Assembly (NCBI GenBank): GCA_963676395.1
Contig: OY781066.1
Location: 1,696,001-1,760,000 of the forward strand
Source: a bacterium
Lineage (GTDB): Bacteria; Fidelibacterota; Fidelibacteria; Fidelibacterales; Fidelibacteraceae
DNA: 64,000 bases
Reading direction: 5' to 3'
Positions 4,322-21,345 of this stretch are shown here, piece after piece; position 1 is the stretch's first letter; the number at the start of each line of letters is the position of its first letter. The notes beneath the pieces were generated by a model. That model worked only from the letters and a program-made list of their open reading frames with translations, did no database searches and was not told where the DNA came from. The position numbers and the translations under genes were made by a program.

Positions 4322-5821
4322 ATGAATAAGTCTAGACAATACATCCTCGTACTTTTTCTGTTATTGCTTTCCGTGCCTCTGTTTGCGCAAGTTGTTCCCT
4401 TTAGTCTGACACTGGGATCGGAAACTAAAAACGTGTTTGCTTCGGATCTTTACGGAGCCCGCTGGGTATCGTTGAACAGTTTTTTTCGTTCATTTGGTGT
4501 GGTTGAAAAAATGGATACCGAAAATTGGGAGCTAAGAACGACTTTATCAGGCAAGACGTACAAGTTTTATGCCAATTCATCCTTTTATCAGGTGAATGGT
4601 AAGTGGTTTCATCTGGCAACCACGGTGGAGCGCTTGGGTAATGGTTTGTACATTCCAGAGAAAGAATTTATTTTGGTACTACATCGGGAGGCCTTTCCCG
4701 AAATGGTTAAGGATATTGTATCCGGCGCTTATATTCTTGCGCCGACCGAATTTTCTATCACTGGGATGAATATTCTTGAAATGAAGAACGGAACCATCGT
4801 TCGTCTCAAAACCTCAAAATTCTTTAGAAAAGATCATTGCCGCGTATGGCAGGGAGCTAATCAGTATCTCTATATTTCTATTTACGATGCTACTGCCGAT
4901 ATGAATGGTTTGGCAAGAACATTTGATCATGGTGTTATACGTGAGATCGTGCCGGTGCAGGCGAAAGAAATGTTGCAATTCAATATGAAATTGCGCATGA
5001 GGATCAAAAGCATGGATTATTATATTGACCAGAATAACGGCGATATTGTAATCTCTTTGCGTCATGATTATCAAAAAAATCAAACCCCCATTAATGAAAC
5101 TCAGATCAAAAACCGCTGGTTGATCGATACCATTGTGATCGATCCCGGTCACGGTGGTCGAAAATCTCCCGGTGCCATCGGCCCGGATGGTACTTTGGAA
5201 AAAACCATTGCTTTGGATGTTTCTCGACGTCTTGGTTCAATGCTGGAGGATAAATTGGGTGTTAAGGTTATTTACACACGTGAAAACGATGTGTTTATTC
5301 CTCTTTATCAACGTCCAAAGATCGCCAATGAAGCGGGTGGAAAATTGTTTATATCCATTCACTGTAATTCTTCGACTTCATCTTCTCCCTACGGTACCGA
5401 AACCTATATTTTAGCACCAAAAAGCACAGAAAAATCCATTGAAATCGCGGCACGCGAAAACAAGGTGATCGAGCTTGAGGAAGATAGAGAACGATATGAA
5501 AAAATGCTGAGTTCTGAACAGTATATTCTTTCTACTATGGCTCAGTCTGTATATATGAAAGAAAGTGAGATGCTGGCGCAATCGATCGAAACAAAGTTTA
5601 AAGGACGTTTGGGTGCAAAAAGTCGTGGTGTTAAACAGGCTTCGTTTATTGTTTTGATAGGTCCGGCAATGCCTGCAGTGTTAACAGAGATCGGATTTAT
5701 TTCTAACTGGCGTGAATTGAGTAATCTTAAAAAAGATTCCTATCGCCAGGAAGTGGCATATTCCTTGTATCAAGCGATAAGAGATTTTAAGAATAATTTC
5801 GAGAAAGAAATAAAAGAGTAA
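4322..5821 (+). CDS. N-acetylmuramoyl-L-alanine amidase (Amidase_3)
   Basis: IDPGHGG, EK...L, FISIHCN, AVLTEIGFISN motifs; signal peptide. Confidence 0.93.
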   Translation: MNKSRQYILVLFLLLLSVPLFAQVVPFSLTLGSETKNVFASDLYGARWVSLNSFFRSFGVVEKMDTENWELRTTLSGKTYKFYANSSFYQVNGKWFHLATTVERLGNGLYIPEKEFILVLHREAFPEMVKDIVSGAYILAPTEFSITGMNILEMKNGTIVRLKTSKFFRKDHCRVWQGANQYLYISIYDATADMNGLARTFDHGVIREIVPVQAKEMLQFNMKLRMRIKSMDYYIDQNNGDIVISLRHDYQKNQTPINETQIKNRWLIDTIVIDPGHGGRKSPGAIGPDGTLEKTIALDVSRRLGSMLEDKLGVKVIYTRENDVFIPLYQRPKIANEAGGKLFISIHCNSSTSSSPYGTETYILAPKSTEKSIEIAARENKVIELEEDRERYEKMLSSEQYILSTMAQSVYMKESEMLAQSIETKFKGRLGAKSRGVKQASFIVLIGPAMPAVLTEIGFISNWRELSNLKKDSYRQEVAYSLYQAIRDFKNNFEKEIKE

Positions 5822-5823
5822 GC

Positions 5824-5851
5824 AAACAGCGTACAGCTGATAGTAGGCAGC
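5824..5851 (+). repeat. Degenerate heptamer array upstream of four helix bundle gene
   Basis: AAACAGC GTACAGC TGATAGT AGGCAGC; the NNNCAGC units are complementary to the downstream GCTGATA units. Confidence 0.6.
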
Positions 5852-5875
5852 AAATGCAAGTCATGGGGGTGACGG

Positions 5876-6235
5876 ATGCGTGATTTTAAGAAATATGATA
5901 TTTGGCATAAAAGTCATAATTTTGCAATGAAAGTATATTGTGAAACAAAGCTTTTTCCTAAAGATGAGACCTATGGATTAAGGAGCCAATTAAGAAGGGC
6001 GGCAACATCAATACCTACTAATATTGTAGAAGGTGCCGGTCGAGATGGCGACAAGCAGTTTGCACGATTTGTCGATATCGCTATGGCATCGGCATGTGAA
6101 TGCGAGTATTTACTTATATTGATACAAGAGTTAAACTATATTTCTGATAAAAATTATAGAGACCTTGAAAAGAAAGTCGTTGAAATCAAGAAAATGCTTG
6201 CAACTTTATATAAAAGATTGAAACTTGATAGCTGA
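5876..6235 (+). CDS. Four helix bundle protein (TIGR02436 / 23S rRNA IVP family)
   Basis: W.KSH...VY..T..FP..E.YGL.SQLRRAA.SIP.NI.EG..R and A..SA.E..Y signature. Confidence 0.95.
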   Translation: MRDFKKYDIWHKSHNFAMKVYCETKLFPKDETYGLRSQLRRAATSIPTNIVEGAGRDGDKQFARFVDIAMASACECEYLLILIQELNYISDKNYRDLEKKVVEIKKMLATLYKRLKLDS

Positions 6236-6326
6236 TAGCTGATAGCTGATAGCTGATAGCTGATAGCTGATAGCTGATAGCTGATAGCTGATAGCTGATA
6301 GCTGATAGCTGATAGCTGATAGCTGA
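6226..6326 (+). repeat. Perfect heptamer tandem repeat (TGATAGC)x14 + TGA
   Basis: Counted directly; supplies the stop codon of the four helix bundle gene. Confidence 0.98.
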
Positions 6327-6354
6327 CATAAACATAACCCGAAAGTATACTACA

Positions 6355-7179
6355 ATGTCCAAAGGTAAAATTGGCATCTTCGATAGCGGTTTAGGCGGCC
6401 TCACTGTCTATAAAGAGATCAGGAAATTGCTTCCCGATTACGATTATCTGTATCTTGGAGATTCTGCCAGAACGCCCTATGGTACTCGCTCTTTTGAAAC
6501 CATTTATCATTACACTCAGCAGGGTGTTGAAAAACTTTGGGATTTGGGTTGTCCACTCATTATTCTAGCTTGTAACACGGCGTCCGCGAAAGCATTGCGC
6601 AGTATTCAGCAGAAAGATCTCGTCGAAAAATATCCCGATCGTCGGGTTCTCGGTGTGATCCGTCCTTCGGTGGAGGTGGTGGGGGAGGCATCTAAAACGC
6701 GAAAAATAGGACTTTTTGGCACCACTGGAACCGTGAGATCGGAATCCTATAAAATGGAATTTGATAAACTATTTCCTGACCTTGAACTTTTCCAGGAAGC
6801 TTGTCCCATGTGGGTACCGCTGGTTGAGAATAATGAGATCGATACGCCGGCTGCAGATTATTTTGTGAAACGACATGTGGAGCATCTTTTAGGCAAGAAT
6901 GCTGATATCGATACGATCATTCTGGCTTGTACGCATTATCCCATGTTGGTTGACAAAATCAAACAATATTTGCCCGACGGAATTCGCGTGATGGATCAAG
7001 GTCCGCTGGTTGCCGATAAATTGGCAGATTATTTGCAACGCCATCCTGAGATAGAAAGCCGGTGTGCCAAGAACGGCAAAGAAGAGTTTTATACTACCGG
7101 TTCAACGGAATTGTTTAAGAAGAATGCTTCGATGTTTTTCGGTAAGAAGATTTTGGCGGGACACATAGAATTAAAATGA
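6355..7179 (+). CDS. murI: Glutamate racemase
   Basis: FDSGLGGLTV, PYG, ACNTAS and LACTHYP catalytic motifs. Confidence 0.96.
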   Translation: MSKGKIGIFDSGLGGLTVYKEIRKLLPDYDYLYLGDSARTPYGTRSFETIYHYTQQGVEKLWDLGCPLIILACNTASAKALRSIQQKDLVEKYPDRRVLGVIRPSVEVVGEASKTRKIGLFGTTGTVRSESYKMEFDKLFPDLELFQEACPMWVPLVENNEIDTPAADYFVKRHVEHLLGKNADIDTIILACTHYPMLVDKIKQYLPDGIRVMDQGPLVADKLADYLQRHPEIESRCAKNGKEEFYTTGSTELFKKNASMFFGKKILAGHIELK

Positions 7180-7227
7180 TATAGAGATGCGAGATTATGA
7201 GCATCTGCAGGGCCGAAGAAAGAATTC

Positions 7228-8496
7228 ATGCAAGATTACCTCTCCGATTTATACAAAAAACTCTCCGGCAAAATGAAGCTGGGGCGACAACGGGCCGAAA
7301 TGCTCATGCGGGAGCTGGGGCATCCGGAAAAAGCTTTTCCTTCGATACATATTGCCGGGACTAATGGCAAAGGCACTGTGACTACGGTTGCGGCTGCTAT
7401 TTTACAGCAATTGGGATATAAAACCGGCAAATTCACATCACCGCATTTAATGCGTTTTAATGAGCGGATCTCTGTTGCCGGCAAAGAGATCAACGATAAC
7501 TATATCAAATTGTTTTTAGCAAATCATGATGACTTGTTAGAGAAAAGCGAGGCCTCCTTCTTTGAGGTTACCACCGCTTTGGGCTTCCAATATTTTAAAG
7601 ATCAAGCCGTGGATATCGCGGTGGTGGAAACGGGTCTGGGCGGTCGCCTGGATGCGACCTCGGTATTGACTCCCGATGTTTCCGTGATCACGACCATTGG
7701 CTATGACCATACCGCCATTCTTGGTGAAACACTTCCCGAGATCGCAGCCGAAAAAGCCGGGATCATTAAAGAGGGGAAACCCGTGCTGACCTTGCCGCAA
7801 AGTGAAAAGGTGCTGAATGTTTTTCGGGAAAAGACCGATCTGCTGAGTATCGTAGATCCTAAAGATCTCTTTGCCGATGTAAAACAAACACCTCAAGGGA
7901 TGCGTTTTAATTATCTACCGGAAAGTAGAGAATTGCTGTTTCCGATATGCGGGGAGCATTTGCTGGGAAATATCGGACTGGCTATTGCGGCCGTTGAATG
8001 CTTTCTTGGAAAAAAACTCAAAGCGGATGATTTGCAAAAGGCATTTGATATACTTAGTTGGAAAGGTCGTTTTGAACACCTGTCTTTCGATCCGCCGGTG
8101 ATCTATGATGTAGCACATAATTTTCAGGGTGTGGCGGCTTTTTGTAAGACGGCTATGTTGGTGTATCCCGATAGGGGTTTTATTGCCGTAATGGGACTAT
8201 TAGACGATAAATCACCGGAGAAAGTGATGCAAGAATTGTCTGTTCTAAACGGCAAGATCATTCTTGCACCCGTCAACTCGCACCGCTCGATGAGTATGGA
8301 AAAACTACAGGCTTTGGCCGAAAATTATCCCGGAGTTAAAACGGCAGACTCCGTGACGCAAGCGTGCGAGCGAGCATACGACAAAATGAAAGAAAACGAT
8401 GTTCTGCTTATCCTTGGCTCGCATTATATAGCGGAAGAAGTCTACGGATTTACGAATAATCGAATGAGTGAACATTCGAATGAAATAATCGATTGA
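7228..8496 (+). CDS. folC: Folylpolyglutamate/dihydrofolate synthase
   Basis: HIAGTNGKG, FTSPHL..FNERI, ETGLGGRLDAT, EKAGIIK, DVAHN, GSHY motifs. Confidence 0.95.
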   Translation: MQDYLSDLYKKLSGKMKLGRQRAEMLMRELGHPEKAFPSIHIAGTNGKGTVTTVAAAILQQLGYKTGKFTSPHLMRFNERISVAGKEINDNYIKLFLANHDDLLEKSEASFFEVTTALGFQYFKDQAVDIAVVETGLGGRLDATSVLTPDVSVITTIGYDHTAILGETLPEIAAEKAGIIKEGKPVLTLPQSEKVLNVFREKTDLLSIVDPKDLFADVKQTPQGMRFNYLPESRELLFPICGEHLLGNIGLAIAAVECFLGKKLKADDLQKAFDILSWKGRFEHLSFDPPVIYDVAHNFQGVAAFCKTAMLVYPDRGFIAVMGLLDDKSPEKVMQELSVLNGKIILAPVNSHRSMSMEKLQALAENYPGVKTADSVTQACERAYDKMKENDVLLILGSHYIAEEVYGFTNNRMSEHSNEIID

Positions 8497-8573
8497 CGAA
8501 TGAGTGAATAAACAGACAGAACAATCGAGTGACGAATGAGTGAGCAATCGAATGCTTGATTAATCGATTGTTC
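8454..8573 (+). repeat. Degenerate 4/8-nt periodic repeat array overlapping the folC 3' end
   Basis: GAAT/GAGT/GAAC units; TGACGAATGAGTGA at 8494-8507 and 8530-8543; inverted pair GAACAATCGA (8519-8528) / TCGATTGTTC (8564-8573). Confidence 0.8.
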
Positions 8574-8642
8574 AAATAGTCTTGTCTTGCATCTCCAATA
8601 TAAACAAACAACTACGATTAAAATTGTAAAAGGTAGAAATAC

Positions 8643-8671
8643 TTGACAATGTAGCTATGTAGGTGTAGTTT
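8643..8671 (+). promoter_or_regulatory. Putative sigma70 promoter of the beta-propeller lipoprotein gene
   Basis: TTGACA-N17-TAGTTT. Confidence 0.5.
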
Positions 8672-8789
8672 TCGTTAAAGAATAATTAAAATGTGAACAG
8701 ATAATGAATCACTCGTCCTCTGTTCAAAAAAATAGTAGCTTGAAATGATAGCTCTATTCGTATAAATGATGTTAGTAATGGAAAAGTAA

Positions 8790-9824
8790 ATGAAAAGAGA
8801 ACTGCTACTAATCATAGTAATGTTTAGCATTATGATTTTGTTTAATGCATGTATTTTTAAACCAAATAATTCCAATGAATTCTACTACCTATATGTTGGT
8901 AATTGGGATAATGATGAGGTGTTTATCATCGACACAGAGGATAACTCCGTTATTGATACACTCGATGGTTTTGGACATGTTTGGGATCTAGCTATAACTC
9001 CGGGTGGGAGTAAACTCTATGTAAGTACCAGAGAAGGTATGTATAATCAACCTGGTGCTTTATTTTCTGTAGATTTACAAAGTAAGACAAAGAGAATCAT
9101 ATTAAACAGTGCTGCAGATGTTTTTATTAGTCCATCCGGTACACCACTTGTTATCGCGCATATTCCTAATGATACCATGGCGCAGGTGGGATTTATTGAT
9201 ACTTTGACGGATCAGATTAGTTTTATTGATAGTCTGAATATTTTAGATCAATCAATTAATTATCAGAATTTAGTTTTTGACCCAATAGAACCTATTTTTT
9301 ATGCTTGGACAAATCAACATTATTTATTTGGATATAATTATAATTGCGAGGGAATAGTTCATCTTTTTAACTCGGAATCGGTATCTGAAGAGATGATTAT
9401 ATCAAAAGATGGTAAATATATATTTTTTCCTGATAAGACATTAGATATAGTAAAAGATTCAATTATTGCGACTTGGGAAGGCAGAAAAGGTACAATGATG
9501 CAAAGTAATGATGGAAAAACTTTATACCTTACTGATTATGGGAATCCCTTTTCTACTTTGCTTGCTCCCCCTAGTGGTTTGGTAAGAGTTCTAGATTTAG
9601 AGACCTATACTATCGTTAATTCTATGAGTTTTAATGAAGCAGCGGAACATTATTATCCGCATTTAGATAGGATGATAATAACTCCAAATGGAAAAAAGGC
9701 CTTTGTAAGTAGCCCCGCTGAAATATTTAGTGTTGATCTAAATAGAAATATAGCTGTGAGTATCTTTAGACCGGTAGTAGGTAATTCTTGGTTTAAACCC
9801 ATTGTAGTTGGGAAAAAACCTTAA
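8790..9824 (+). CDS. YncE/YVTN-like beta-propeller lipoprotein
   Basis: Lipobox-like LFNAC; repeats such as LAITPGGSKLYV, ISKDGKYIF, SNDGKTLYL, ITPNGKKAFV; visibly more AT-rich than folC. Confidence 0.75.
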   Translation: MKRELLLIIVMFSIMILFNACIFKPNNSNEFYYLYVGNWDNDEVFIIDTEDNSVIDTLDGFGHVWDLAITPGGSKLYVSTREGMYNQPGALFSVDLQSKTKRIILNSAADVFISPSGTPLVIAHIPNDTMAQVGFIDTLTDQISFIDSLNILDQSINYQNLVFDPIEPIFYAWTNQHYLFGYNYNCEGIVHLFNSESVSEEMIISKDGKYIFFPDKTLDIVKDSIIATWEGRKGTMMQSNDGKTLYLTDYGNPFSTLLAPPSGLVRVLDLETYTIVNSMSFNEAAEHYYPHLDRMIITPNGKKAFVSSPAEIFSVDLNRNIAVSIFRPVVGNSWFKPIVVGKKP

Positions 9825-9935
9825 GTATCCGTATCTTTTCCTACGGCATATTCTTAAGAGAGACCGGAGATCCGCTACAGCCAAATGTTAATCCGATGGC
9901 AAACCAATTTGGAGAAAAAGCTTTAATGTATTAAA

Positions 9936-10031
9936 TTATTGCTTATCCTTGGTTCGCATAATATTGCGGAGGAGGTTTATAGTTGGGTGGGGCAATTTAC
10001 CCCGACGAATGGAGGGGTAATTCAAAGGTAA
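9936..10031 (+). pseudogene. Orphan duplicate of the folC 3' end
   Basis: 9939-9980 aligns with folC 8404-8445 at 34/42 nt; encodes LLILGSHNIAEEVY versus LLILGSHYIAEEVY, then runs to TAA at 10029-10031. Confidence 0.85.
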
Positions 10032-10214
10032 CCCGGGATGGGATCCCGGGAGAAGAATAATCCAAACATCAACAACCCTGAGCGAAGTCGAGGGGTTGAC
10101 CTGCGATACATAGATCAACCCTTCCATAAAGTCAGCTTGTAAACTTTTAGCATGGACGTTCTCAGGATTTCATCCCGGGGCAATAACAAATAATCCCTCG
10201 ATAACCTCGGGGTT
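10031..10214. repeat. Cluster of degenerate REP/MITE-like palindromes
   Basis: CCCGGGATGGGATCCCGGG; TCAAC-AACCCTGAGCGAAGTCGAGGGGTTGA; CAGGATTTCATCCCGGGG; CCCTCGATAACCTCGGGG. Confidence 0.65.
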
Positions 10215-10232
10215 TAAAATATGGAGAAAAAT

Positions 10233-10574
10233 ATGAATAACTGCATCTTTTGCAAAATCGCCAATAAAGAGATCCCCTCAACCGTCGTTTACGAAGACGA
10301 TGATGTTTTGGCATTTAAAGACCTTAATCCTCAGGCACCCGAACATGTACTCATCATTCCCAAACGGCATATCGCACGCATCGAAAATCTGCAAGAAGCC
10401 GATGCCGATGTCATGGGCAAGGTGATGGTCGCAGCAAAAAAAGTTGCGGACAAGCTCGGACTTAAAAACGGTTACCGTTGCGTATTTAATAATGGTTCCG
10501 ATGGTGGTCAGGAAGTGGAACATATCCACCTTCACCTGATGGGCGGACGGAAATTTTCTTGGCCTGCGGGGTGA
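10233..10574 (+). CDS. Histidine triad (HIT/Hint) nucleotide-binding protein
   Basis: CIFCKI, PQAPEHVLIIP, GQEVEHIHLH, WPAG; start reset to ATG after GGAG. Confidence 0.95.
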   Translation: MNNCIFCKIANKEIPSTVVYEDDDVLAFKDLNPQAPEHVLIIPKRHIARIENLQEADADVMGKVMVAAKKVADKLGLKNGYRCVFNNGSDGGQEVEHIHLHLMGGRKFSWPAG

Positions 10575-10767
10575 GAATTGAGGACTTGCGTGCTGAAAAT
10601 GGGAAAATAATAATGCAAGATACATGGACGCTTCGAGACGAGCGTCTTTCATAAATCAATATGATCATTCTAGCGTTTAAATATGTTTGTGCCTTAGTGT
10701 GAGATGTTTTCTTTGATTGGTGCCTGTTTTGTCTTAAATTACACGGTTAAATTTTTAAAATAACATT

Positions 10768-13700
10768 ATGTTTATATCTAAACTGGAAATTGTGGGCTTT
10801 AAATCTTTTGCGACCAAAACCGTTTTGCAATTTGGTAAGGGCGTAACGGCAGTGATCGGACCGAACGGCTGTGGTAAATCCAATGTCGTTGATGCGATCC
10901 GTTGGGTGATGGGCGAACAAAAAACACATACCCTTCGCTCGGAGTCCATGGTGGATGTGATCTTTTCCGGTTCTAAACATCGAAAACCTCTGAACTATGC
11001 TGAGGTAAATCTTACCATTCATAATGATGACGGTAAGCTTGGACTGGCTTATACCGAGGTTCAGGTTGGCCGTCGTTTATACCGCGACGGTTCTTCGGAG
11101 TATTTGCTTAACGAAGTACCGGTTCGTTTAAAAGATATTCAGAACCTTTTTGTCGATACAGGTATGAGCTCTAATGCTTATTCCGTAATTGAATTGAAAA
11201 TGGTAGAAGAGATCCTTAACGAAGATAAAATCCAGCGAAAACTACTTTTTGAAGAAGCCGCAGGTATTACAAAGTATAAATCTCAGCGTCGCTCTGCGAA
11301 ACGAAAACTTGATGCGACCCAAGAAGATCTCGCAAGACTTGAAGATATTATTTACGAAGTTGAAAGCTCGGTTCGTGGCTTGAAACGTCAATTAGGTCGC
11401 TACGAACGCTATGAAGGTTATGCCGAAGAACTTAAGAAGTTAGAGCTTACCTTAGCTCAGACCAACTGGTACGATTACGAAGATAAGATAGTCCCCCTGG
11501 AAAAGCAGTTATCCAATAATCAGATCCGTAACGAAGAAACCGGTAAACAGCTTGGTATCGAAGAAGCCATGTTGACCTCATACAAACAGGAGCTTGAAAA
11601 GATCGAAGCGGGTATGAATGAGGTGAATGATAAGCTGCAGGAACTAAATGATAAGTTTAATTCCGAATCTTCTAAAAAATTGGTTTGGCAGGAAAAAATC
11701 GGGAATGCGCAAAGTAATAAGGTCCGCTTGCAAAACGAAAAAGAATCTGCAAAGATCCGACTTCAATCCAATATAGAAATGCAGGAAAATCTATCATCAC
11801 AATTGGGCGATGATGATCCTGAATTGGTTGCGATGCGCGAGGAACTCGAAAAAGTGCGTGAAAATTTTGAAGAAGTTCAAAGCATCTATCAAAATGCTTC
11901 TCATCGTCTGGATGAGTTAAGGCAAGATCTTCGTGAACAGCAAAATCAGTTGGGGAATTCACAGCAGCAAATCCTTCGCCTGCGAGATCAACGTAAACAA
12001 TATTCGCGATTGCAGGATGAAGAGCTGCAACGTCGTGAGCAATTGATCTCACGCTCAGGCTCACAGGAAGAACAAGTTAAGTCACTCAAAGTTGAATTAG
12101 AGAATAAAGAAAAAGAACTCGAAGAGGCCAACGCTCAGGTAGAACAATGTGAAGTTGAGCGACGAGCTTTTGAGTCAAAAATACAGACCCTTAATTCCGA
12201 GATCGTACAAAGGCAGACGGCATATGAACGAAATCGTTCCGATGCCGCATTTTACAAAGACCTTGTAGAATCGCTGGAAGGTTACAATCCGGGTGTTAAA
12301 TATGTAATGAAAACTATGAAGCATTCGGGCATTCGTGGAACGGTTGCGGAGTTGATTTCTGTAGATAAAGAATACGGTACAGCGATAGAGATCGCTCTTG
12401 GAAATGTTGCAAAATATCTGGTAGCCGAAACTAAATCAGATGCCATGGATGTGGTTGACGAATTAAAAGCAAAAAAACGCGGGCGAGTCAGCATTGCTCC
12501 AATGGATGTAATGAAGAAACGCCTCAAAGACCCCTTAAAGAATCCTTTTCACGATTCAAATATTTTAGCTCATGCCGTTGATATCGTTTCGGCTGAAGGC
12601 GATAATCAATTATTGGTTGATTATTTTTTGGGTAACGTATTGATCGTTCGCTCATTGCGCGATCTAAGTGAAGCTGCATTAAAAGATGCCCGATTCCGAT
12701 ATGTTACCCCCGAAGGTGATTACATGGATGGACGTGCCATGATTCGCGGTGGTAAGGGACAGGGACAAAACCAGCAGATCATTGGTCGTCAGGAAAAATT
12801 GAAAGAACTGAATGAGTTTGCCGAAAAGCTCAAAGATGATCTTGAATTTTCTAAGAAATCGCTTTCTGATCTCGAAAGGGCTCGTCAGGATCTTATCAAG
12901 AAAACCGGAGAAGTTTCGCGACACTCCAAGCTTATTATGCAAGAACGTCTTGAGGTCGAAAAGAAAATGTCGGCATTATCATATGCTGTAAATCATCATC
13001 ACGACAGTATGGAAGAGATTGATCGCAAGGTCGAGGATTATGCCGGACGCATTCTTGAAATAGATAAGCAGATGAGCTCATCGGAAGACCTTCTTGCTAC
13101 AAGTAAGATCAATGAAGAAAAAGCTCAAAAAGATCTGGAAAGATATCGTGCGGAATATGAAGATATTTCATTTCAACGTGATAAGTTGAACAATGAATTA
13201 CAGGATATGCGTGTTTCATTGATCGCAAAAGAAAAAGAAAAGGACAATGTCCGTTTTCAATATAAAAATGCGACAGCAACCATCGAAGAGATGAATAAAC
13301 GACTTCTTGAGATTGATGAACAAGTGAAAAGCTTGAATGATTTGATCAGTGAAGGCGAGAGCAATACTGCGGAGCTTGATGTTAGTCTGGAATTGCTTCG
13401 CTCTAAGCGAGATGATGCTCGTGAGCAACGTGATAAAGTTTATAAAGAATTGAGTGTGAAACGCGATCAGATCCAACAGGTCGAAAATGCGATTGCGGAA
13501 TATCATCGGAATCGCGAAGATGCTTTTGAGACCCTTCGGGATCTGGAAGTCCGCGTTAAAGATCTCCAATTACGACAGAGTCAGTTGAAAGATCGCATGT
13601 ACGAACGATATCATATTGATATTCTCAAGAAACCTTATGAACCTATGGATATGGATAGGCGTGAGATGGAAGAGAAAATAGAAAAGCTTACACATCGCAT

Positions 13701-21305: not shown

Positions 21306-21345
21306 TAGTAAGTAGTAAGTAGTGAGTAGTATACTACTTCTAAAC
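21306..21345. repeat. Heptamer array with central palindrome between convergent genes
   Basis: TAGTAAG TAGTAAG TAGTGAG TAGTATA; perfect palindrome AGTAGTATACTACT at 21325-21338. Confidence 0.75.

Follow-up and report, generated by a model that had tools for sequence, protein, structure and literature searches.

An insertion with a predicted lipoprotein gene at the folC 3' end of a marine bacterial genome, and the displaced gene end behind it

The 64,000-nucleotide stretch of DNA analyzed here (the window; G000:C1:1696001-1760000 of G000, a single-contig genome of 2,335,625 bases and 38% GC) carries, in the 3' end of its folC gene, an insertion of about 1.5 kb that is specific to its lineage. 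The insert begins with a new tail for folC and a tandem repeat and carries one cargo gene, which encodes a predicted beta-propeller lipoprotein; behind it lies a second, orphaned folC 3' end, which appears to occupy the ancestral position of that gene end. We consider the chances about even that this was an additive event, comprising one crossover within the folC end and one non-homologous joint, and for which a route without a dedicated integrase is favored. Coordinates below are window positions unless prefixed with G000:C1.

The live folC gene (7228..8496, plus strand) encodes 422 amino acids (aa) with the Pfam domains Mur_ligase_M and Mur_ligase_C, and matches the NCBIfam model TIGR01499 (folC) with 349.6 bits over residues 21-407. 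Its catalytic domain ends at about residue 407 (..EEVY), and the last 16 residues form a new tail, GFTNNRMSEHSNEIID* (8446-8496), encoded by the start of the tandem repeat; despite this insert-borne end, the predicted reading frame is open over its whole length and covers TIGR01499 to residue 407. The end of the conserved part, encoding LLILGSHYIAEEVY (8404..8445, plus strand), is one of two direct repeats that flank the insert. The other repeat, at 9939-9980 (start-to-start spacing 1535 nucleotides, nt), encodes LLILGSHNIAEEVY and belongs to the orphan (9939..10031, plus strand), which has no gene body and continues into a native-type tail, SWVGQFTPTNGGVIQR. The orphan reads ...VYSWVGQFTPTNGGVIQR, with its stop codon at 10029-10031; another stop codon (9924-9926), four codons 5' of the orphan block, closes its frame, and the 30-codon fragment 9939-10031 is a relic and not a gene.

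Direct reading and a repeat search both found that the two blocks are identical at 34 of 42 nt. Seven of the eight differences (8404, 8418, 8430, 8436, 8439, 8442 and 8445) are synonymous, while the remaining one (8425) is a non-synonymous change from tyrosine to asparagine in the orphan, inside a GSHY motif that is intact in 25 of 25 relatives. These counts are the same as those of the original prediction, a model's reading of the bare sequence from which this analysis started; that reading also gave the orphan tail correctly, but left the residues GF out of the live tail. The match between the blocks is beyond chance, because a blastn search of all gene ends against the whole genome returned it with E = 6e-6, because the 13-nt identical core, TGCTTATCCTTGG (8405-8417, repeated at 9940-9952), has exactly two occurrences in the genome, and because similarity drops sharply outside the block, to 5 of 14 identical nt on its left and 7 of 30 on its right. 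The homology of the live copy runs leftward through folC and ends after VYG, which sets the right limit; the homology of the orphan begins abruptly at 9939/40, the left limit, and runs on into native DNA.

Comparison with the relatives of this marine lineage, which are titled Candidatus Neomarinimicrobiota, revealed the empty sites. Of 21 other species of the genus, 19 had a folC match and 18 had folC and a HIT-family gene on one locus, one contig ending inside folC; the two genomes that lack a folC match are 66% and 72% complete. The HIT gene (10221..10574, plus strand; Pfam HIT, 108 bits) directly follows folC in all 18, at a distance of -16 (an overlap) to 277 nt versus 1724 nt in G000, and no cargo homolog was detected at the folC site of any of these 18 loci. 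The original prediction had proposed that an insertion displaced the resident folC end and had named a lack of empty alleles among relatives as evidence to the contrary; the 18 empty loci, together with the colinearity of the orphan with the native tail, spacer and HIT, bear the proposal out.

The orphan tail is as long as the working folC tails in G002 and G015 (TWVGEITPTNGGVKHN*), with which it shares homology; together with the spacer of about 190 nt behind it, it can be aligned with the genuine folC tails and spacers in G002, G015, G006 and G011. Because it runs on into the native folC tail and spacer seen in these four relatives, the orphan evidently holds the ancestral position, colinear with native downstream DNA as the live copy is with the body of folC; such a pair is the product that would be expected of a single crossover inside the block. 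Aligning the relatives' folC-HIT intervals, as had been suggested, thus points to the orphan-type tail as the ancestral one, and the cargo varies between lineages.

The folC locus of the window is not an assembly chimera. Four sequencing runs (X1 to X4) were compared by contig matches, and a Logan contig of X4 covers 7000-11000 intact, with no differences; X4 is probably the assembly's own source, so that this is not independent support. Contigs of X1 and X2, which come from one other study and represent an organism of about 85% identity, have the same insert junctions, and bridge the locus from folC to the cargo start and from the cargo through the orphan to HIT. That an assembly artefact fused two strains is therefore hardly credible; nothing was found in its favor, although a single-contig genome may stem from mixed material.

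The insert is single-copy in the genome and has a GC content of 0.28-0.39, compared with 0.42-0.50 in the flanking genes. Its left part (8446..8554, plus strand) consists of the replacement folC tail and a stop-rich tandem repeat with a CGAATGAGTGA-type motif, which Tandem Repeats Finder placed at 8461-8554 (period 36, 2.6 copies) and which recurs at several intergenic sites of the genome. The AT-rich non-coding leader of the cargo gene follows (8555..8789, plus strand; 235 nt, GC 0.28-0.32) and is about 88% conserved in the X1/X2 relative. The cargo gene (8790..9824, plus strand) encodes a 344-aa predicted lipoprotein whose signal peptide ends in ..LFNAC, presumably a lipobox, and whose mature part is predicted to form a seven-bladed YVTN-type beta-propeller. 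One YVTN repeat was detected (NCBIfam TIGR02276, 30.2 bits against a cut-off of 27.85), and the AlphaFold model of the protein (pLDDT 86, pTM 0.82) finds its best PDB match in 1l0q_A, the YVTN propeller of an archaeal surface-layer protein (E 7e-16, TM 0.69), with YncE (3vgz) matching too; the model thus indicates a propeller of the YVTN/YncE type. The only Pfam match at E <= 0.01, MHC_II_alpha (E 0.0084, 16.3 bits, cut-off 23 bits), is spurious. The right-hand spacer of the insert (9825..9938, plus strand; 114 nt) has a terminator-like hairpin at 9829-9846, and an open frame at 9827-9931 in it gave no convincing match in its own genome (best E 0.007 over 31 aa). Beyond the repeat motif, neither the leader nor the right spacer matched any relative locus compared. 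The repeat array and the AT-rich beta-propeller lipoprotein gene of the original prediction were thus confirmed here; its promoter was not, since TTGACA is present in the leader at 8643-8648, but a promoter consensus scan calls no promoter-like site in 8555-8789.

The cargo family is rare, with eight homologs among 5.8 billion proteins, and its nine loci in species-representative genomes belong to metagenome-assembled genomes titled Neomarinimicrobiota, Bacteroidota or Latescibacterota. Within a set of 41 genomes, relatives of the cargo were found in G013 (58%), G017 (40%) and G035 (42%), along with two weak matches, none of them in a folC context.

According to the list of open reading frames (ORFs), the lipoprotein gene is the sole real ORF in 8446-9938, so that the insert contains no recombinase; nor did the ORF list and the repeat search show a transposase or terminal inverted repeats at the insert. 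The genome as a whole has five matches to PF00589 (tyrosine recombinase), three of them full length and the nearest about 310 kb away, and none to PF00239 (serine recombinase). Two neighboring tyrosine-recombinase genes, with a repeat motif between them, are seen in the ORF lists at 710-713 kb. Viral contigs yielded no match to a back-translated folC-end pattern and no relative of the cargo family, phage and plasmid records yielded no match to the insert, and no folC-targeting integrative element was found in the titles and abstract openings that literature searches listed. A scan of metagenome contigs with folC returned 64% as the best identity among 80 loci and thus no close relatives that could provide strain-level alleles; the closest relative available is G019, with 83% aa identity in folC.

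The insertion and its junctions appear to be common to at least two lineages, judging from the contig matches. One X2 contig extends from position 7588 in folC across the live block and the repeat to the cargo start (8863). One X1 contig (9213 nt) matches 8484-8863, continues with 631 other letters in place of 8864-9897, matches again over 9898-9987 (spacer and orphan; 14 of 90 nt differ), substitutes 73 letters for 9988-10218, and then enters HIT. The contigs of both runs align over 8484-8863, which contains the leader, and in X1 the 9898-9938 stretch beside the orphan is conserved as well. From run X3 came two cargo pieces of 151 nt that differ at 1-3 positions. Because X1/X2 has 7 additional nt after 8467, which shift the frame of the folC tail, this tail is not conserved as a protein. 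No excision joint between the repeats was seen in the contigs of the four runs, contigs being a form of data that drops rare forms.

Two related proteins suggest what has happened to the cargo in these lineages. P0008 (212 aa, encoded on a 9213-nt contig) has the cargo's signal peptide up to CIFKP, followed by an unrelated mature part, so that cargo residues 1-25 (8790-8863) are common to a different cargo protein of another lineage; from its size and this N-terminus we infer that the contig is the X1 contig. Over 242 aa, P0001 shares 95% identity with the cargo, but it stops early, in a way that fits a one-base deletion relative to the window. As read from these sequences, the cargo appears to have been exchanged precisely after the signal peptide in one lineage and broken by a frameshift in another. 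The right-hand side of the insert has a reticulate history, since the X1/X2 spacer between orphan and HIT (73 + 2 letters) resembles that of G019 (75) in size. Behind the cargo gene, 44 nt (9833-9876) match separate contigs of 8543 nt in X1 and 674 nt in X2, with five differences; because this match is not on that organism's folC-locus contig, the cargo block and its 3' flank may both derive from a different locus.

Whether the two folC ends diverged in place or apart was addressed with G019 as the outgroup. Of the 42 nt, G019 has 4 that are unlike the orphan block and 7 that are unlike the live block. Polarized in this way, the live copy has five changes, every one of them synonymous and located on the right of the 13-nt core, and the orphan has two (the synonymous change at 8404, which lies left of the core, and the tyrosine-to-asparagine change); one difference could not be polarized. 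The orphan has the G019 letter at all five polarized live-copy sites on the right-hand side of the core, and at 8404, the only differing site on the left, it is the live copy that has it.

The original prediction had inferred from the synonymous excess that both copies evolved as functional alleles. An outcome of seven synonymous differences in eight is improbable by chance (P = 3e-4 if all substitutions are equally likely, 3e-3 for transitions only); however, the excess alone is insufficient to show that both copies evolved as working alleles, because the synonymous changes sit on the copy that every model places under selection. A relative-rate comparison is more informative: had the copies begun identical, the orphan, with 42 free sites as against about ten synonymous sites in the live copy, would be expected to take about 80% of the changes, yet it took two of the seven polarized ones (P = 0.004). 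The orphan having changed too rarely for divergence in situ, the live end most likely diverged elsewhere, in a working folC, before it joined the present locus; it differs from G019 at synonymous sites only. The part of the claim that concerns a foreign live end is thus probably right.

The orphan is, at the same time, unusually close to G019, with 13 of 14 third positions identical against a gene-wide value of 0.55 (P = 0.003), whereas the live copy, with 8 of 14, shows the ordinary divergence between G000 and G019. A similar closeness is seen in HIT, where 0.745 of the codons are identical to those of G019, compared with 0.48-0.55 for the amidase gene, murI, folC and SMC, and no such peak exists against G015. 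This looks like a recombination tract, common with the G019 lineage, that covers the orphan and HIT.

We also determined whether other genes of G000 have displaced ends, by comparing all gene ends with the genome by blastn and by k-mer scans for gene pieces up- and downstream. At least four other genes have similar displaced-end fragments, at least three of them at the 3' end. The CitF gene (G000:C1 1024740-1027511, minus strand) has a 47-nt copy of its end 1217 nt downstream (orphan VNVMVIDVVREVKT*), each end copy being followed by its own terminator-like hairpin; the AT-rich insert of 1.17 kb has one ORF for a nucleotidyltransferase (PF18765/PF01909) and a partner ORF of 158 aa, which had no Pfam match and for which a 'HEPN-like' label was considered and found to be unsupported. 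An aldehyde dehydrogenase gene (G000:C1 ~698240-701394, minus strand) has a 166-nt end copy of 90% identity about 1.5 kb downstream, start to start, in which 31 of 32 residues are identical before a compensated frameshift; the copies flank two small lipoprotein-like ORFs with a GC content of 0.20-0.31, a (TAAACGGTGAACAG)-type repeat and a terminator-like hairpin lie behind the orphan, and among 22 genomes of the genus only G000 has the extra fragment. The C-terminal 30 residues of a HAD hydrolase (G000:C1 2282187-2283420, plus strand) are copied 357 nt downstream, with 24 residues identical and no cargo gene. Two further cases, listed jointly as ORFs ending at G000:C1 902641 (minus) and 1674643 (minus), are a 231-aa ORF that has two stop-containing end copies 7-9 kb downstream and a gene with N-terminal fragments upstream of it.

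In an unbiased scan, the gene fragments found were C-terminal pieces downstream of their genes and one N-terminal piece upstream, and none came from the middle of a gene; this statement sets aside a periodic array (395653) and, downstream of the ORF that ends at 718325, a short N-terminal match. The array (G000:C1 ~394930-396400) has a spacing in multiples of 66 nt and a repeated peptide, LFLVSFLHQVTT, gives rows at all ORF positions, and could be a CRISPR-like or another repeat array. No recombinase ORF was present in the end-duplication inserts that were read (ORF lists of the CitF, aldehyde dehydrogenase and HAD loci). At the end-duplication loci, both copies are followed by sequences that resemble the relatives' downstream regions, which fits incoming DNA that is chromosomal DNA of related lineages.

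Several features of the surroundings should be mentioned. The native spacer between folC and HIT (10032..10220, plus strand) is a hairpin-rich element common to G002, G015, G006 and G011, for which RNAalifold proposes 59 pairs, six with compensatory changes, and 30 nt of which recur once elsewhere (G000:C1:2278796). It contains a 23-nt inverted-repeat pair (about 10076-10100 and 10194-10213), with the native folC tail TPTNGGV encoded in its first hairpin. The spacer has no Rfam match, and an Rfam scan of 5500-11000 gave nothing at E <= 0.3; the element could be related to repetitive extragenic palindromes or miniature inverted-repeat transposable elements, or could be a structured RNA.

Stop-rich short tandem repeats, often heptamers, follow many genes in the genus. 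In the window they are found at 6226-6326, 8461-8554 and 21306-21331, and the folC tails of G003 and G004 run into such repeats too. Examples are TGATAGC and TAGTAAG here and, as read in relatives at the loci L145, L147, L148 and L150, GACGTAA in G002, GGTTAAG in G008, GAAGCAA in G014, and AGTTTAG in G026 and G014. A second G000-specific insert (5822-6354) lies 2 kb upstream, between the amidase gene and murI, and comprises a gene for a four-helix-bundle protein of the 23S-rRNA-IVP/Avd-like kind (5876-6235; Pfam PF05635, 130.8 bits) and, behind it, (TGATAGC)x14 (6226-6326), with a partial repeat seed, CAGCTGATAG, directly after the amidase stop codon. The amidase gene and murI are adjacent in all six relative loci that hold both genes, and none of the seven loci searched has an IVP match.

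Under the mechanism that we favor, the incoming DNA would have begun with a diverged copy of the last 14 or so conserved folC codons, behind which lay the stop-rich tandem repeat, the AT-rich leader and the beta-propeller lipoprotein gene. One crossover inside the folC end, most likely within the 13-nt core at 8405-8417, and a joint without homology at the insert's other end (9938|9939) would have left folC with its catalytic domain and an insert-borne tail, and would have pushed the original end, with native tail, spacer and HIT, 1.5 kb downstream, where the end became a dead fragment. Later, the conserved flanks would have served as homology arms, allowing the mature part of the cargo to be exchanged between lineages. 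The topology would equally be that of a Campbell-type integration of a circle or of homology-facilitated illegitimate recombination (HFIR) of a linear fragment. The crossover itself would, in our favored version, have been RecA-type pairing on a short homeologous block with DNA from a related lineage. This route is preferred over an integrase because there are at least five targets, repeats of 42-166 nt and almost no recombinases in the genome, because no parent element was found in the viral, phage and plasmid collections, and because the flanks resemble related chromosomal DNA. Genes for ComEC and DprA are present and lend weak support to an uptake route, weak because controls show both genes to be widespread.

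Several observations weigh against this reading. A 13-nt identical core in a 42-nt block of 81% identity is short for RecA, and we found no donor genome and no donor arrangement, that is, folC, repeat and lipoprotein gene without the orphan. The evidence from X1/X2 consists of contig match tables, and the other members of the cargo family occupy unrelated contexts. Owing to the closeness of orphan and HIT to G019, the outgroup polarization may have been distorted by a separate recombination tract, which could make the orphan appear unchanged, and the type of spacer is reticulate across lineages, with the long, hairpin type in G000 and the short type in X1/X2 and G019. Finally, no result separates RecA-type from site-specific recombination, and the term 'integrase-free' used in the original prediction holds for the present content of the insert but does not follow for its mode of arrival.

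It is possible, albeit doubtful, that the insert is a decayed site-specific integrative element, whose attP mimicked the folC 3' end and whose tyrosine integrase acted at the 13-nt core; the integrase and mobility genes would later have been deleted, or would have acted in trans, leaving attL, cargo and attR. The anatomy is classical for such an element, with direct repeats, a gene end restored by the element and mostly synonymous differences, and the repeat has its identical core at its left edge, the position that attP requires. The same anatomy is displayed by e14 and phage 21 in icd of Escherichia coli, which sit at the 3' end of a housekeeping gene and keep it intact with their own version of its end, and by the icdC pseudogene, a displaced original end downstream, the two ends differing mainly by synonymous or conservative changes (PMC13626634); e14 is, however, about 15 kb long and, according to that paper, excises by site-specific recombination, whereas the present insert has 1.5 kb, one cargo gene, no recombinase, a 42-nt repeat and a novel repeat-encoded tail. 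Closer in size are the cis-mobilizable elements (CIMEs), described as small (1.2-13 kb) cargo islands with direct repeats or att sites and without integrase, recombination or transfer genes, which are common at the 3' ends of conserved streptococcal genes (PMC7563491). CIMEs are defined by att sites related to those of known integrative conjugative or mobilizable elements, while in the collections searched here neither a parent element nor a folC-targeting integrase was found. The genome does contain two integrase fragments elsewhere, but the insert has neither an integrase nor a fragment of one, no integrase lies beside the other end-duplications examined, and three intact tyrosine recombinases and no serine recombinase would have to account for at least five different target genes. 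No viral, phage or plasmid record has the folC-end pattern, the cargo family or the insert, and the lack of an integrase is already common to the lineage of about 85% identity.

The closeness of the orphan to G019, both in its third positions and in the codon peak of the adjoining HIT, is what would be expected if the polarity were reversed, so that the live end (itself of ordinary divergence), repeat and cargo were the older residents and the orphan and HIT the left border of DNA imported later from a G019-like relative without the cargo, anchored in HIT and joined without homology at 9938|9939. We regard this as unlikely, since it requires two events, one of them an unexplained clean cargo insertion, since a folC end arriving from outside would be expected to pair with its resident counterpart, deleting the cargo, and not to be joined illegitimately, and since the orphan tail and long spacer are unlike those of G019. 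Moreover, X1/X2 has the same junction in 9898-9987, and the event would thus predate that split. Even less probable, and in our view only barely worth entertaining, is a duplication in situ, in which a target of about 42 nt was duplicated on insertion and the identical copies then diverged. Direct repeats around an insert do resemble target-site duplications, and the sole non-synonymous change is in the orphan; yet a free orphan should have about four times the changes of the live copy instead of two against five, the insert lacks a transposase and terminal inverted repeats, and repeats of 42-166 nt are far longer than the target duplications made by transposases.

RecA-type addition at a gene end, which we continue to favor, has a described counterpart in HFIR during natural transformation, in which a homologous anchor and a non-homologous joint add foreign DNA and only RecA is needed (PMC6382021). 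The folC insert resembles this process in that one junction lies in homology (the 13-nt core) and the other does not. Natural transformation is unproven in the host's phylum, ComEC and DprA being known here from genes alone. HFIR usually deletes recipient DNA beside the anchor; in the present case the recipient end has been kept, as a duplicate. Another likeness is with the tycheposon-type islands of marine picocyanobacteria, which are flanked by partial tRNA copies (10.1101/2020.12.28.424599): these too involve streamlined marine genomes, cargo at fixed sites, partial target copies as scars and integrase-less remnants, but mostly target tRNA genes and are defined by tyrosine recombinases, while the present cases concern the ends of protein genes and lack a recombinase.

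The structure described here is a known kind of insertion scar, made unusual by the lack of an integrase, by its recurrence in one small genome, and by a cargo exchange that is precise to the signal peptide. Duplicated gene ends around an insert are a textbook footprint of an integrase; here the footprint occurs without an integrase in the insert, and at several genes of a small genome that is poor in recombinases. For annotation, it follows that the folC C-terminus in this genome should be read as repeat-encoded and not conserved, and the lipoprotein as recent accessory cargo, which is frameshifted in one lineage and replaced in another.

More broadly, and with the reservation that it may well prove wrong, we tentatively propose that this integrase-poor marine lineage routinely gains accessory genes without a recombinase, through a short homeologous crossover and an illegitimate joint at the ends of conserved genes. 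If so, DNA from related cells would be added at gene ends, the displaced end being left as a direct repeat, and the repeats and the conserved leader would serve as homology arms by which surface lipoproteins, or a nucleotidyltransferase pair, are exchanged between lineages like cassettes; the at least five end-duplications in this 2.3-Mb genome and the cargo swap in X1/X2 would be the footprints of such gain, and displaced gene ends would provide a simple, searchable marker for events of this kind. Should homologous pairing be all that is needed, this would help to explain the turnover of genes for surface proteins and defence-like functions in streamlined, uncultured marine bacteria that are poor in classical mobile elements.

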